Virus genome (UHGV): UHGV-0297988
Source of the DNA: a virus
Reading direction: 5' to 3' (one strand)
Length of the DNA: 15,254 bases
Under the pieces are notes generated by a model. That model ran no database searches. It saw nothing but the letters and a program-made list of their open reading frames with translations, and had not been told where the DNA came from. Below are positions 1-10,838 of the stretch, one piece after another. Position numbers and translations under genes: made by a program. Within the stretch, counting starts at the first letter, position 1, and the number at the start of each line of letters is the position of its first letter.

Positions 1-242
1 ATATCGAATGTGATTACAATCGGTGGCGGCGGCACAGTTGGTGTGGCGGCCTCAGTCCGGAACAATTTGAAAACCAGAACCTCGCTTAGGCCTGTGTCCA
101 TATTACGTGGGTAGGATCAGAACTCCTTCTGCGCGAGTGTGCGGGAATAATCAAAAACGATGCACACCGGGGTTACCGGGTACACATATTTCATCATGCC
201 AGCGAGTCCGGTTCTGGCACGGAAGAAACCGGACGTTATGAT

Positions 243-668
243 TTAGTGCGGAAATATTTGTGTAGTGTTCTGAATGTTCTCAGTAAAGAGTAATGAATTA
301 TCAAAGGTATAGTAATACCTTTTGTTTTCGTGGATATTTGTAATCCATCTGAAAACCCCTGCTGTAGCAAGATTTTTCCTGTATTCGTAAAATGATAACT
401 CTCCTGATTTGAATCCTTTTAATGTGGCTTCTATAAGGCATTTATTTTTTGAAAATCTTACATTTACAACCTTACCCTGTCCTTTTATTAAAACCGTATT
501 ATCGTTTTCAAGAACAAGATGAATATTCTCTGTGGCTAAATAGTAAATGTAATGTGAGACATTGTGACGTTTTAGTTCAGAATAAAACCAGTGATAGTTT
601 AAATTATTTCGCACTTTATCGAATATTTGTTTAAAAATGGCAACCTGAGCCATTGTAGTACCTTCCAT
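243..668 (-). CDS. Hypothetical 141-aa protein in a low-GC moron-like segment; possibly DUF1398/YbcV-like (tentative)
   Basis: Intact 141-codon ORF on the minus strand; region is visibly AT-rich compared with the flanking phage genes. Family assignment is from memory of similar prophage proteins near cos and is not verified. Start codon not confirmed; the overlapping + strand ORF 449..634 is treated as spurious. Confidence 0.55.
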
Positions 669-710
669 GTGATATGAAGGTACCTAGTCTGCACGATTAT
701 CTAAATTGCT

Positions 711-944
711 TCAATCTGGTCTGACCTGCTTTCTGAGCAATTCAGTAATGTCATTCTTTTCTTTGTTTGCTTCAGGCGAAACTCTTTTTTCTGAGCACAG
801 TCTTCGGCGGCAGGCTTCAATGACCCAGGCTGAGAAATTCCCGGACCCTTTTTGATCAAGAGCGATGTTAATTTGTTCAATCATTTGGTTAGGAAAGCGG
901 ATGTTGCGGGTTGTTGTTCTGCGGGTTCTGTTCTTCGTTGACAT
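711..944 (-). CDS. Small basic protein, YlcI/DUF3950-like, possibly ribbon-helix-helix DNA-binding
   Basis: 77-aa ORF about 200 bp from cosN on the opposite strand. Basic N-terminus (MSTKNRTRRTTTRN) followed by a strand-helix-helix-like pattern (IRFPNQMIEQINIALDQKG...FSAWVIEACRRRL). Lambda and DLP12-type prophages carry a near-identical small gene at this position (recalled, not aligned). Confidence 0.6.
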   Translation of the reverse strand: MSTKNRTRRTTTRNIRFPNQMIEQINIALDQKGSGNFSAWVIEACRRRLCSEKRVSPEANKEKNDITELLRKQVRPD

Positions 945-1113
945 GAGGTTGTCCCGTATTCAGTGTCGCTGATTTGTATTGTCTGAAGTTGTTTTTACGT
1001 TAAGTTGATGCAGATCAATTAATATGATACCTGCGTCATAATTGATTATTTGACGTGGTTTGATGGCGTAGATGCACGTTGTGACATGCAGATGATAATT
1101 ATTATCATTTTGC

Positions 1114-1120
1114 GGGTCCT
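1114..1120 (+). promoter_or_regulatory. Candidate cosQ (packaging termination element), GGGTCCT
   Basis: Heptamer GGGTCCT about 24-30 bp upstream of the cohesive-end sequence, where lambda cosQ lies. Exact cosQ boundaries are recalled from memory and uncertain. Confidence 0.4.
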
Positions 1121-1137
1121 TTCCGGCGATCCGACAG

Positions 1138-1161
1138 GTTACGGGGCGGCGACCTCGCGGG
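1138..1161 (+). other. cosN terminase nicking site; 12-nt cohesive end GGGCGGCGACCT at 1144-1155
   Basis: Exact match to the lambda cohesive end GGGCGGCGACCT at 1144-1155, flanked by lambda-like sequence (CAGGTTACG upstream, CGCGGGTTTTCGCTATTTATGAAAATTTTCCGG downstream). Confidence 0.9.
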
Positions 1162-1195
1162 TTTTCGCTATTTATGAAAATTTTCCGGTTTAAGG

Positions 1196-1213
1196 CGTTT
1201 CCGTTCTTCTTCG
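1196..1213 (+). promoter_or_regulatory. cosB R3, terminase small subunit (gpNu1) binding element
   Basis: CGTTTCCGTTCTTCTTCG resembles the R1 repeat CGTTTCCTTTCT and lies between cosN and the Nu1 start, as in lambda cosB. Confidence 0.6.
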
Positions 1214-1252
1214 TCGTAACTTGATGTTTTTATTTAAAACACCCTCTGAAAA
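1214..1252 (+). promoter_or_regulatory. cosB I1 region, likely IHF-bent AT-rich spacer
   Basis: AT-rich stretch (TAACTTGATGTTTTTATTTAAAACA) between R3 and R2, matching the position of the lambda IHF site I1. I could not match the IHF consensus cleanly. Confidence 0.4.
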
Positions 1253-1267
1253 GAAAGGAAACGACAG
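1253..1267 (-). promoter_or_regulatory. cosB R2, gpNu1 binding element (inverted relative to R1)
   Basis: GAAAGGAAACGACAG is the exact reverse complement of the R1 element at 1293-1307. Confidence 0.65.
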
Positions 1268-1292
1268 GTGCTGAAAACGGGCTTTTTGGCCT

Positions 1293-1307
1293 CTGTCGTT
1301 TCCTTTC
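1293..1307 (+). promoter_or_regulatory. cosB R1, gpNu1 binding element
   Basis: CTGTCGTTTCCTTTC, about 26 bp upstream of the Nu1 start codon; forms a perfect 15-bp inverted repeat with R2. Confidence 0.65.
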
Positions 1308-1332: not shown

Positions 1333-1852
1333 ATGGAAGTCAACAAAAAGCAGCTGGCTGACATTTTCGGCGCGAGTATCCGTACCATTCAGAACTGGCA
1401 GGAGCAGGGAATGCCCGTTCTGCGGGGTGGTGGCAAGGGTAATGAGGTGCTTTATGACTCTGCCGCCGCCATAAAATGGTATGCCGAAAGGGATGCTGAA
1501 ATTGAGAACGAAAAGCTGCGCCGGGAAGTTGAAGAACTGCGGCAGGCCAGCGAGACAGATCTCCAGCCAGGGACTATTGAGTACGAACGCCATCGACTTA
1601 CGCGTGCGCAGGCCGACGCACAGGAGCTGAAAAATGCCAGAGACTCAGCTGAAGTGGTGGAAACCGCATTCTGTACTTTCGTGCTGTCGCGGATCGCAGG
1701 TGAAATTGCCAGTATTCTCGACGGGATCCCCCTGTCGGTGCAGCGGCGTTTTCCGGAACTGGAAAACCGACATGTTGATTTCCTGAAACGGGATATCATC
1801 AAAGCCATGAACAAAGCAGCCGCGCTGGATGAACTGATACCGGGGTTGCTGA

Positions 1853-1878
<26 letters not shown>
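1333..1878 (+). CDS. nu1: Terminase small subunit gpNu1
   Basis: 181-aa ORF MEVNKKQLADIFGASIRTIQNWQEQGMPVLRGGGKGNEV... recognised as lambda Nu1 with an N-terminal helix-turn-helix; first gene downstream of cosB. Confidence 0.96.
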
Positions 1879-5559
<3,681 letters not shown>

Positions 5560-5579
<20 letters not shown>

Positions 5580-6891
5580 TCTCCCGCATATTGCCAGTAT
5601 GGCCTTTAATGAGCCGCTGATGCTTGAACCCGCCTATGCGCGGGTTTTCTTTTGTGCGCTTGCAGGCCAGCTTGGGATCAGCCGCCTGACGGATGCGGTG
5701 TCCGGTGACAGCCTGACTGCCCAGGAGACACTCGCGACGCTGGCGTTATCCGGTGATGATGACGGACCACGACAGGCCCGCAGTTATCAGGTCATGAACG
5801 GCATCGCCGTGCTGTCGGTTTCCGGCACGCTGGTCAGCCGGACGCGGGCGCTGCAGCCGTACTCGGGGATGACCGGTTACAACGGCATTATCGCCCGTCT
5901 GCAACAGGCTGCCAGCGACCCGATGGTGGACGGCATTCTGCTCGATATGGACACGCCAGGCGGAATGGTGGCGGGGGCATTTGACTGCGCTGACATCATC
6001 GCCCGTGTGCGTGACATAAAACCGGTATGGGCGCTGGCCAACGACATGAACTGCAGTGCAGGTCAGCTGCTTGCCAGTGCCGCCTCCCGGCGTCTGGTCA
6101 CGCAGACCGCCCGGACAGGCTCCATCGGCGTCATGATGGCTCACAGTAATTACGGTGCTGCCCTGGAGAAACAGGGCGTGGAAATCACGCTGATTTACAG
6201 CGGCAGCCATAAGGTGGATGGCAATCCTTACAGCCATCTTCCGGATGACGTCCGGGAGACACTGCAGTCCCGGATGGACGCAACCCGCCAGATGTTTGCG
6301 CAGAAGGTGTCGGCATATACCGGCCTGTCTGTGCAGGCTGTGCTGGATACCGAGGCTGCAGTGTACAGCGGTCAGGAGGCCATTGATGCCGGACTGGCTG
6401 ATGAACTTGTTAACAGCACCGATGCGATCACCGTCATGCGTGATGCACTGGATGCACATAAATCCCGTCTCTCAGGAGGGCGAATGACCAAAGAGACTCA
6501 ATCAACAACTGTTTCAGCCACTGCTTCGCAGGCTGACGTTACTGAGGTGGTGCCAGCGACGGAGGGCGAAAACGCCAGTGCGGCGCAGCCGGACGTGAAC
6601 GCGCAGATCACTGCAGCGGTTGCGGCAGAAAACAGCCGCATTATGGGGATCCTCAACTGTGAGGAGGCTCACGGACGCGAAGAACAGGCGCGCGTTCTGG
6701 CAGAAACCCCCGGTATGACCGTGGAAACGGCCCGCCGCATTCTGGCCGCAGCACCACAGAGTGCACAGGCGCGCAGTGACACTGCGCTGGATCGTCTGAT
6801 GCAGGGTGCACCGGCACCGCTGGCTGCAGGTAACCTGGCATCTGATACCAATAAAGAATTACTTAATACACCTGAAGCTTTACCGGTATAA
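5560..6891 (+). CDS. C: Head maturation protease / scaffold fusion gpC (S49-type serine protease)
   Basis: Frame continuous with the track ORF 5446..6891; lambda-like start is GTG at 5560 (then TAELRNLPHIASMAFNEPLML), preceded by AGGAGGAG at 5548-5555 and overlapping the B stop by 20 nt as in lambda. 443 aa here versus 439 in lambda as recalled. Confidence 0.9.
6274..6891 (+). CDS. nu3: Scaffolding protein gpNu3, in-frame internal initiation within C
   Basis: Internal ATG at 6274 (MDATRQMFAQ...), 714 nt into the C frame, the same offset as Nu3 within C in lambda (recalled). Shares frame and stop codon with C. Confidence 0.7.
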   Translation: MDATRQMFAQKVSAYTGLSVQAVLDTEAAVYSGQEAIDAGLADELVNSTDAITVMRDALDAHKSRLSGGRMTKETQSTTVSATASQADVTEVVPATEGENASAAQPDVNAQITAAVAAENSRIMGILNCEEAHGREEQARVLAETPGMTVETARRILAAAPQSAQARSDTALDRLMQGAPAPLAAGNLASDTNKELLNTPEALPV

Positions 6892-6900
6892 GAGGCAGTT

Positions 6901-7233
6901 ATGGCGACAAAAGAAGAGTTTAACCATTACCAGCCGCTGGGTAACAGTGATCCGGCTCATACAGCAATTGCGCCTGGCGGATTGAGTGCGAAAACGCCTG
7001 CAATGACCCCACTGATGCTGGATGGCACTACCCGTAAGCTGGTTGTGTGGGATGGCACCACCGACGGTGCAGCCGTTGGCATTCTGGCGGTTGCTGCTGA
7101 CCAGACCAGCACCACACTGACGTTCTACAAGTCCGGCTCGTTCCGTTATGAGGATGTGCTCTGGCCGGAGGCTGCCAGCGACGAGACGAAAAAACGGACC
7201 GCGTTTGCCGGAACGGCAATCAGCATCGTTTAA
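6901..7233 (+). CDS. D: Head decoration protein gpD
   Basis: 110-aa ORF with C-terminal ...[57 protein letters not shown] matching lambda gpD; the N-terminal approximately 45 residues differ in several positions from my recollection of lambda. Confidence 0.94.
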
Positions 7234-7250: not shown

Positions 7251-7276
7251 AAAGGCCGCCTGTGCGGCTTTTTTTA
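7251..7276 (+). terminator. Terminator-like hairpin between D and E: GC stem, CTGT loop, T7 run
   Basis: AAAGGCCGC-CTGT-GCGGCTTT followed by TTTTTTT (7269-7275); the GCCGC/GCGGC core stem can extend by A-U/G-U pairs. Lies 18 nt after the D stop and 13 nt before the E start. Confidence 0.45.
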
Positions 7277-7288
7277 TGGAAATAATTT

Positions 7289-8314
7289 ATGTCTGTATAT
7301 ACAACTGCAGAATTACTGGCATCGACCCAGCATCACTTTAAGTTCGATCCGCTGTTTCTGCGCCTGTTTTTCCGTGAAACCTATCCTTTCACCACGGAAA
7401 AAGTCTATCTCTCACAAATTCCGGGACTGGTAAACATGGCGCTGTACGTTTCGCCGATTGTTTCCGGTGAGGTTATCCGATCCCGTGGCGGCTCCACCTC
7501 TGAATTTACGCCGGGTTATGTCAAGCCGAAGCATGAGGTGAATCCGCAGATGACCCTGCGTCGCCTGCCGGATGAAGATCCGCAGAACCTGGCTGACCCG
7601 GCTTACCGTCGTCGCCGTATTATTCGGCAGAATATGCTGGATGAAAATCTGGCGATTGCCCAGGTCGAAGAGATGCAGGCAGTTTCTGCCGTGCTTAAGG
7701 GCAAATATACCATGACCGGTGAAGCCTTCGATCCGGTTGAGGTGGATATGGGCCGCAGTGAGGCGAATAACATCACGCAGTCCGGCGGCACGGAGTGGAG
7801 CAAGCGTGACAAGTCCACGTATGACCCGACCGACGATATCGAAGCCTACGCGCTGAACGCCAGCGGTGTGGTGAATATCATCGTGTTTGATCCGAAAGGC
7901 TGGGCGCTGTTCCGTTCCTTCAAAGCCGTCAAGGAGAAGCTGGATACCCGTCGCGGCTCTCATTCCGAGCTGGAGACAGCGGTAAAAGACCTGGGCAAAG
8001 CGGTGTCCTATAAGGGAATGTATGGCGATGTGGCCATCGTCGTGTATTCCGGACAGTACGTGGAAAACGGCGTCAAAAAGAACTTCCTGCCGGACAACAC
8101 GATGGTGCTGGGGAACACTCAGGCTCGCGGTCTGCGCACCTATGGCTGCATTCAGGATGCGGACGCACAGCGCGAAGGCATTAACGCCTCTGCCCGTTAC
8201 CCGAAAAACTGGGTGACTACCGGCGATCCGGCGCGTGAGTTCACCATGATTCAGTCAGCACCGCTGATGCTGCTGGCTGATCCTGATGAGTTCGTGTCCG
8301 TTCAACTGGCGTAA
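7289..8314 (+). CDS. E: Major capsid protein gpE
   Basis: 341-aa ORF MSVYTTAELLASTQHHFKFDPLFLRLFFRETYPF...; same length as lambda gpE and recognisable sequence. Confidence 0.96.
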   Translation: MSVYTTAELLASTQHHFKFDPLFLRLFFRETYPFTTEKVYLSQIPGLVNMALYVSPIVSGEVIRSRGGSTSEFTPGYVKPKHEVNPQMTLRRLPDEDPQNLADPAYRRRRIIRQNMLDENLAIAQVEEMQAVSAVLKGKYTMTGEAFDPVEVDMGRSEANNITQSGGTEWSKRDKSTYDPTDDIEAYALNASGVVNIIVFDPKGWALFRSFKAVKEKLDTRRGSHSELETAVKDLGKAVSYKGMYGDVAIVVYSGQYVENGVKKNFLPDNTMVLGNTQARGLRTYGCIQDADAQREGINASARYPKNWVTTGDPAREFTMIQSAPLMLLADPDEFVSVQLA

Positions 8315-8316
8315 TC

Positions 8317-8343
8317 ATGGCCCTTCGGGGCCATTTTCTCTCT
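8317..8343 (+). terminator. Terminator-like hairpin between E and FI: 7-bp stem, UUCG tetraloop, U-rich tail
   Basis: ATGGCCC-TTCG-GGGCCAT (8317-8334) is a perfect 7-bp stem closing a C(UUCG)G tetraloop, followed by TTTCTCTCT (8335-8343). Starts 3 nt after the E stop. Confidence 0.45.
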
Positions 8344-10097: not shown

Positions 10098-10838
10098 ATG
10101 GCAACACCAAATCCTCTTGAGCCGGTAAAAGGTGCCGGTACCACTCTGTGGGTTTACAACGGCAAGGGTGATGCTTATGCAAACCCGTTGTCAGACGATG
10201 ACTGGCAGCGACTGGCTAAGGTGAAGGATCTGACGCCGGGCGAGATGACGGCAGAATCCTACGATGATAACTACCTGGATGATGAAGACGCGGACTGGAC
10301 CGCGACCGGTCAGGGGCAGAAATCTGCAGGTGATACCAGTTTTACGCTGGCCTGGAAACCGGGAGAGGAAGGCCAGAAAGGGCTTATAGGCTGGTTTGAA
10401 AGCGGCGATGTCCGGGCCTATAAAATCCGTTTTCCGAATGGCACGGTGGATGTGTTTCGTGGCTGGGTCAGCAGTATCGGTAAAGCGGTGACGGCGAAGG
10501 AAGTGATCACCCGCACGGTGAAGGTCACCAATGTGGGACGCCCGTCGATGGCAGAAGATCGCAGCACGGTAACAGCGGCCACCGGCATGACGGTAACGCC
10601 AGCCAGTGCTTCCGTAGTGAAAGGGCAGAGCACCACGCTGACCGTGGCATTCCAGCCGGAAGGCGCAACCGACAAGAGCTTCCGTGCGGTGTCAGCGGAT
10701 AAAACAAAAGCCACCGTGTCGGTCAGTGGTATGACCATCACCGTGAACGGCGTTGCTGCAGGCAAGGTCAACATTCCGGTTGTATCCGGTAATGGTGAGT
10801 TTGCTGCGGTTGCAGAAATCACCGTCACCGCCAGTTAA
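10098..10838 (+). CDS. V: Major tail tube protein gpV with C-terminal Ig-like (Big_2-type) domain
   Basis: 246-aa [40 protein letters not shown]...; the C-terminal approximately 90 residues ([60 protein letters not shown]...) have the alternating hydrophobic/Thr/Ser/Val pattern of an Ig-like domain, as known for lambda gpV. Confidence 0.95.

Follow-up and report, generated by a model that had tools for sequence, protein, structure and literature searches.

The question raised by this locus is why a hairpin with the shape of a rho-independent terminator should lie between two head genes of a late operon, and what it does there. Transcription of lambdoid late operons begins at pR', and Q renders the polymerase resistant to terminators. 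According to the phage L (P22-like) paper, terminators inside these operons are common, 'their roles are not known', and they could serve for partial termination or for halting polymerases that lack antitermination. An earlier note pointed to such a hairpin in the virus genome UHGV-0297988, between the genes for decoration protein D and capsid protein E, and offered three roles for it: a partial terminator, an mRNA-stabilising 3' structure after processing, or a translational spacer tuning the D to E ratio. We examined these possibilities in the whole stretch of 15,254 nucleotides in which the hairpin was seen (hereafter the window).

The ORF list and Pfam matches identified the window as a lambda-type head and tail gene block with every gene on the + strand (Table 1). 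The order Nu1, A, portal, S49 protease/scaffold, D, E, FI and tail tube bears out the placement of the hairpin inside a late operon, the late promoter itself being outside the window. Window D is 89-92% identical in amino acids to lambda D-type proteins, and over the D-E region identity reaches 99.8% with Escherichia phage Perceval and PhiR47_2 and about 88% with lambda. Perceval, the closest sequenced relative, encodes a Q antiterminator ahead of the genes for lysis and the head; its left flank before cos differs from that of the window. The cos site falls inside the window (Perceval coordinate 1 corresponds to about window 1144, and ev099 has its right end at 1147), and because the window crosses cos, its source is a prophage or a circular form. 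Ahead of cos (within window 1-1300) the matches are to Kati, PhiR49_1 and ev099, which are other phages than those matched by the head genes, so the genome is mosaic.

Table 1. Genes and RNA elements of the window (positions count from its first letter)
Feature	Position	Strand	Basis or remark
Nu1	1333-1878	+	ORF list, Pfam
Terminase A	1853-3778	+	ORF list, Pfam
W	between A and portal B in gene order	+	ORF list, Pfam
Portal B	3978-5579	+	ORF list, Pfam
C, S49 protease/scaffold	about 5560-6891	+	ORF list, Pfam
Third hairpin, CCCGCCTATGCGCGGG + TTTTCTTT	stem 5629-5644, with tail to 5652; element 5626-5655	+	scans, fold
D, head decoration protein (stop TAA 7231-7233)	6901-7233	+	ORF list; Pfam HDPD 7e-21
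AAA tract, can pair with the first U residues to give the 9-pair stem	7251-7253	+	folds; variable or broken in some homologs (pair columns 8-10)
5' stem arm GGCCGC (GCCGC 7255-7259)	7254-7259	+	inner 5 pairs nearly invariant, 20 homologs
Tetraloop CTGT	7260-7263	+	hypervariable in relatives (alignment)
3' stem arm GCGGC	7264-7268	+	invariant columns G20-C24 in homolog alignment
T7 run (U-tract)	7269-7275	+	sequence; T27-T31 invariant in 20 homologs
E ribosome-binding region, GGA(AA) 7278-7282 and ATG 7289-7291	7278-7291	+	begins 3 nt past the T-run
E, major capsid protein (ATG 7289-7291)	7289-8314	+	ORF list; Pfam Phage_cap_E 7.5e-70
Hairpin after E, ATGGCCC-TTCG-GGGCCAT = ATGGCCCTTCGGGGCCAT, then TTTCTCTCTG	hairpin 8317-8334, to 8344	+	scans, fold
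FI	ATG 8356	+	own strong SD GGAGGAG
V, tail tube	10098-10838	+	ORF list, Pfam

Reading the sequence reproduced the letters and coordinates of the hairpin exactly (GCCGC, CTGT, GCGGC and T7 at 7251-7276), and its terminator shape, a GC stem followed by U7 in the D-E spacer, is as the earlier note described it. The spacer from the D stop (7233) to the E start (7289) is 55 nt long and reads TCTTCCCCTTCATCAACAAAGGCCGCCTGTGCGGCTTTTTTTATGGAAATAATTT; position 7276, directly after T7, is an A. The stem had been called extendable, and it does extend to 9 pairs (7251-7272) through outer G-U and A-U pairs. The folding energy calculation proposed as a check gave -12.3 kcal/mol (z = -2.8) for the resulting 29-nt element with its 9-pair stem and 4-nt loop, -15.2 kcal/mol (z = -3.0) for the whole 55-nt spacer, and -9.3 kcal/mol for the 6-pair core alone (5 G-C pairs and one G-U). 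The stem begins 17-20 nt past the D stop codon and ends 16-20 nt ahead of the E start. It lies on the sense strand, the same as all head genes, and the size of the ribosome footprint places it clear of a ribosome halted at the D stop and outside translated RNA. The T-run passes straight into an ATG (7276-7278; TTTTTTTATGGAAATAATTTATG) that is out of frame with E and has no Shine-Dalgarno sequence ahead of it. Lambda has ACG at the same position, and N15, an Erwinia prophage and several other relatives have ATG or ATA.

The D-E hairpin with its T7 run is not a product of chance. A strict scan (at least 5 G-C pairs, a loop of 3-8 nt and, past the last non-T pair, 8 bases of which at least 7 are T) returned two matches in the window, at 5629 and 7255, both on the sense strand. 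Among 500 dinucleotide shuffles of the window the mean was 0.03 matches with both strands combined, and any match at all occurred in only 2.6% of shuffles. The run at 7269-7275 is moreover the sole T7 run on the + strand of the 15-kb window. A third match, at 8318, passes only a slightly looser cut. At this looser setting the scan gave a single - strand match, at 10729-10711 inside V (CCACTGACCGACACGGTGG then CTTTTGTT), a hairpin antisense to the tail tube gene that may be a chance match. A consensus terminator scan reported 7255-7268 on the - strand only and missed the + strand site. Going by its stated criteria, that scan seems to have extended the stem through the A-U pairs and so consumed the T-run, and it may overlook other terminators flanked by an A-tract in the same way.

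To see which parts of the element are kept, we aligned the homologous class, 20 distinct sequences from Escherichia to Marinobacterium. Pairing is retained in 95% of cells, with the inner five pairs nearly invariant, and the two pairs at the stem base alternate between A-U, G-U and G-C with 7 double changes; the pair of G7254 itself is G-U, A-U or G-C. The loop has no consensus (CTGC, CAGC, TTAT, CATC, TGCA, AAAA, TCTG, AGAC, ATC, GGAT and GCAA all occur). The T-run is invariant and the 5' A-tract is not, which points to selection in the sense direction, that of late transcription. The alignment thus indicates that the hairpin and U-run are selected jointly as one module. The same asymmetry speaks against a symmetric DNA motif as the selected unit. 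We also rejected a bidirectional terminator as the function under selection, since the hairpin is weaker on the - strand (-9.5 kcal/mol, z = -1.75, tail CTTTGTTG) and the A-tract needed there is unconserved.

The element is already known: it is lambda's own, and three phage records name it as a terminator. Lambda (J02459) has the same 26-nt core, AAAGGCCGCCTGTGCGGCTTTTTTTA, though flanking spacer bases differ; the lambda spacer is likewise 55 nt long and has the same flanking genes. Seven spacer bases outside the core distinguish the two, for example ATGGAAATAATTT in the window and ACGGGATTTTTTT in lambda before the E ATG. The lambda reference record J02459 has no feature annotated at the site. 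In HK629 (JQ182735, 5911-5931), whose spacer is identical to that of lambda over the stretch compared, it is annotated as a 'rho-independent terminator'. The records of N15 (AF064539) and HK225 (JQ086371) mark putative rho-independent terminators on both sides of gene 8 (E), the first of them separating it from gene 7 (D). These two phages resemble the window in position, in the GCCGC/GCGGC stem, in T7 and in the second terminator past the capsid gene, and differ from it in the loop (CTGC), in the outer pair (A-U, where the window has G-U) and in the length of the spacer (67 nt). A full-text literature search found no RNA 3'-end, termination or RNA stability measurement for the lambda D-E site.

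Conservation was surveyed at two distances. The close set consisted of 80 IMG/VR loci with gpD at 91% identity or more, and all 80 retain the hairpin and a T6-T7 run amid ten different flank variants; because the set contains close relatives only, it yields no covariation. Two of its spacers (L014 and L070) are chimeric, resembling lambda on the left of the hairpin and the window on its right, which indicates crossovers between head-gene variants in or beside the conserved 26-mer. Distant relatives were gathered with tblastn against phage records and with a capsid-protein alignment against GTDB, one genome per species. A strong hairpin with a T-run is present in 38 of the 48 distinct D-E junctions; another is weak, four have a hairpin only and five have none. 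Among the five empty junctions the spacer measures 0-12 nt in three, a stem of the phage 21 type carries a mismatch in another, and the last belongs to a contaminant contig of low coverage in which one stem base is changed. By comparison, coding parts of these loci give a background of 0.25 per kb, or about 0.02 expected per junction.

The D-E slot is filled in these phages and prophages by hairpin sequences of at least seven unrelated kinds. They are the GCCGC/GCGGC type (with GGG..CCC and GGTCGC variants), the CCGCC/GGCGG type, the phage 21 type (CAGGCCACC/GGTGGCCTG), that of Gifsy-1 (GGCCGC-GAA-GCGGCC), that of Trabulsiella guamensis, a Shewanella/Vibrio type overlapping the D stop codon, and that of Vibrio ST2-1pr. 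The T-run is absent from phage 21, its relatives and a Natronospirillum prophage, and Gifsy-1 has only a weak one. As the hairpin outlasts the T-run in several relatives, it is the most persistent part of the element, as expected of a 3' protector.

The GTDB search also returned many short, mostly low-coverage contigs whose capsid protein matches that of the window as closely as lambda's does and which come from assemblies of unrelated organisms (Neobacillus, Kitasatospora, Paenibacillus, Bradyrhizobium, Pseudomonas, Enterococcus, an Akkermansia MAG and others). These suspect contigs (L096-L111, L122, L129, L130, L138, L143-L151, L154-L156, L160-L166 and L170) look like lambda DNA contamination of the assemblies.

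The D-E hairpin has companions. The hairpin after E begins 3 nt past the E stop, ahead of FI, and folds at -12.9 kcal/mol (z = -3.3). It is present in 60 of 65 distinct relatives, and the T-run is strong in 41, weak in 4 and poor or absent in 15. With one hairpin after D and another after E, the capsid gene is bracketed. The ORF caller placed the FI start at 8317, an ATG within the post-E hairpin, which is probably not the real start. The third hairpin lies inside the C coding sequence, about 50 nt past the portal stop at 5579, and encodes part of LEPAYARVFFCAL. It sits in an island of about 40 nt that is nearly identical, synonymous sites included, in lambda, N15, phi80, HK225, phage 21, PhiR12_2 and Gifsy-1, although the C sequence flanking it is strongly diverged in phage 21 and Gifsy-1. 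This pattern suggests constraint at the nucleotide level, and the third hairpin may belong to the same set as the other two. Aeromonas phages have a different hairpin with a T-run directly past the portal stop.

We compared the D-E element with the RNA families to which it might belong. It has the full set of sequence-level features by which an intrinsic terminator is recognised: a GC-rich stem with a short loop, a U-run directly 3' of it, the sense strand, a ribosome-free position, occurrence above chance and a conserved structure. We conclude that, as far as sequence can tell, it is a selected intrinsic terminator module. Rfam had nothing at gathering score anywhere in the window. The Leu_leader model (RF00512) reached 29.8 bits against a gathering score of 50, through its terminator part only and with 54 central model positions replaced by 5 bases; this match is a generic resemblance between terminators. 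Matches to isrK and CRISPR-DR28 were at chance level. An attenuator with an alternative antiterminator fold was rejected: in a fold of 141 nt the hairpin at the D 3' end and the terminator stay independent helices, and inspection of the upstream sequence found no complement of GGCCGC.

Of the three roles first proposed, the translational spacer found no support. D and E are needed about equally, at about 400 copies each, so a step-down between them would have no obvious purpose. The GGA(AA) at 7278-7282 is the putative Shine-Dalgarno sequence of E, and the block ACGGGAAAAATCTATG at the E ribosome-binding region is conserved in relatives. RNAalifold on 19 homologous spacers retained the terminator hairpin alone and gave no conserved helix touching this sequence, so that the consensus fold shows no translational operator masking it and argues against a structural translational spacer. 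An outer helix that masks it appears in single-sequence folds only (UUCAU/AUGGA in the window, CCC/GGG in lambda) and is not conserved.

A related proposal is that U7, lying just ahead of a weak Shine-Dalgarno sequence, works through ribosomal protein S1 as a U-rich enhancer while the hairpin shields the E start from upstream pairing, allowing very high translation of E. U-rich leaders do enhance translation, and the hairpin, T-run and ribosome-binding region are conserved together as a block. Throughout the homologous class a fixed 19-23 nt separate the stem end from the E ATG while the interval between the D stop and the hairpin varies, and the unrelated CCGCC/GGCGG type also stands 20-23 nt from the E start. 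However, 19-20 nt is simply the tightest packing of a T-run and a ribosome-binding site. In other classes the hairpin is 25-50 nt from the E start and the T-run, if there is one, adjoins the hairpin and not the ribosome-binding site. The lack of a conserved helix with the Shine-Dalgarno sequence and the occurrence of a like module after E, where FI already has a strong GGAGGAG of its own, count against the proposal as well. We regard it as improbable for the element as a whole, though the U-run may additionally be a U-rich translation enhancer.

The partial terminator and the mRNA-stabilising 3' structure remain the best fit among the roles of the earlier note, and we tentatively combine them. 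In late RNA, GGCCGC-CUGU-GCGGCU would fold just behind a polymerase sitting on U7. Q-modified polymerase would mostly read through, with some leakiness in lytic growth being probable, so that a minority of polymerases would terminate at D-E. Read-through RNA, once cut downstream, would be trimmed by 3' exonucleases back to the hairpin. Head mRNA ending after D would then accumulate with a protected, and presumably stabilised, 3' end, and the twin hairpin after E would do the same for the E message. Compared with the remainder of the late operon, the messages of the two most abundant head proteins would be raised and stabilised by the pair. The persistence of hairpins where T-runs have decayed speaks for this account, as do the sites themselves, which adjoin the genes of those two proteins, and the precedent of leaky terminators beside capsid genes in phiX174 and T7. 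It is weakened by the third hairpin, which follows the low-copy portal gene, and by the roughly equal demand for D and E, which gives a drop in expression from one to the other no clear logic. V, the abundant tail tube gene, has only a 15-nt spacer after it with no such hairpin, so that placement after abundant genes is not a general rule. Moreover, the terminated fraction may be negligible, as Q-modified polymerase resists terminators, and a pure stabiliser would not need a strictly conserved U-run.

That last point favours a fail-safe insulator, which would stop polymerase without Q modification and keep the capsid gene silent in the lysogen, being merely read through in lytic growth. The polymerases stopped would come from cryptic promoters or from 'moron' genes near cos that are expressed in the lysogen, or would have escaped from tR'. 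We consider such a role nearly as likely as the combined one, and several observations agree with it. The U-run, as the most strictly conserved part of the module, points to selection on termination itself; three sense-strand terminators occur within 3 kb (5629, 7255 and 8318); the closest relative has a Q antiterminator; and the life of these phages is mostly that of a prophage, the D-E junction being present in 3201 of 5426 complete E. coli genomes (about 59%). The phage L paper offers the same idea as one possible role of intra-operon terminators. Against it, the first hairpin comes about 4.3 kb into the head genes and leaves Nu1, A, W and B unprotected, and the hairpin has outlived a decayed T-run in the phage 21 type, Gifsy-1 and others. 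Between cos and E there is no predicted sense-strand promoter-like site except two weak consensus matches near cos, and the total count of such sites is below shuffle expectation. We narrowly prefer partial termination combined with 3' protection.

It is also conceivable, at long odds, that the element has no selected RNA role, the 26-mer being a stretch of homology for recombination of head modules or the leftover terminator of an ancestor without antitermination. The chimeric spacers with crossovers in or beside the hairpin, and a core that is identical between phages with flanks about 88% identical, fit such a view. A recombination linker, however, leaves unexplained why unrelated hairpins and T-runs stand at the same place in distant phages, why the loop is free while the stem is kept with compensatory changes, and why the T-run is conserved and the A-tract is not. 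Equally speculative is the idea that the three hairpins (after B in C, after D and after E) would split the head message into separately stabilised units and that the fragment ending at D-E would be a small RNA bound by Hfq and acting on its own targets. Precedents for such RNAs are lambda PreS, which arises at the internal terminator tL2a, and StxS, which arises at tR'; the D-E element has the terminator hairpin with at least 6 U of an Hfq-binding module. Conservation is lowest in the spacer upstream of the hairpin, the D 3' end is conserved but coding, and no head-gene entry is among the entries listed in the lambda RIL-seq preprint supplements.

Terminators beside capsid genes are found in other phages: TF follows capsid gene F in phiX174, and T-phi lies after gene 10 in T7. 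Together with phiX174 TJ, TG and TH and the terminator at the end of the procapsid module of P22/L, these are, like the D-E element, intrinsic terminators situated in a structural operon beside capsid genes, and they are largely read through. The internal terminators TJ, TF and TG of phiX174 stop only 20-40% of transcription, and weak terminators balance expression in T7 and LUZ7. In phiX174 and T7, which have no Q-type antitermination, read-through results from the weakness of the terminators, whereas at D-E it would be expected from the modified polymerase. Lambda tL2a (PreS/LPR1) and tR' (6S RNA, StxS) share with the D-E element a GC hairpin and poly-U, placed within or at the start of an operon through which N- or Q-modified polymerase reads. 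The measured termination efficiencies are those of phiX174, and the tL2a and tR' RNAs have been seen on northern blots and are Hfq-bound. REP hairpins between malE and malF are intercistronic 3' stabilisers. The D-E element shares the structure of this class: within a polycistronic RNA, a highly expressed upstream cistron has a stable hairpin at its 3' end. REP elements differ in having their own consensus and no U-run.

Our survey indicates that a hairpin and U-run at the D-E junction are maintained by selection, in unrelated sequences, in phages of Escherichia, Kluyvera, Klebsiella, Erwinia, Vibrio, Shewanella and others. The feature is not new, so little changes in the picture of these phages. 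Why antiterminated operons keep strong-looking terminators beside capsid genes is a small but general question, and the D-E site of lambda is a convenient and genetically tractable place at which to approach it.
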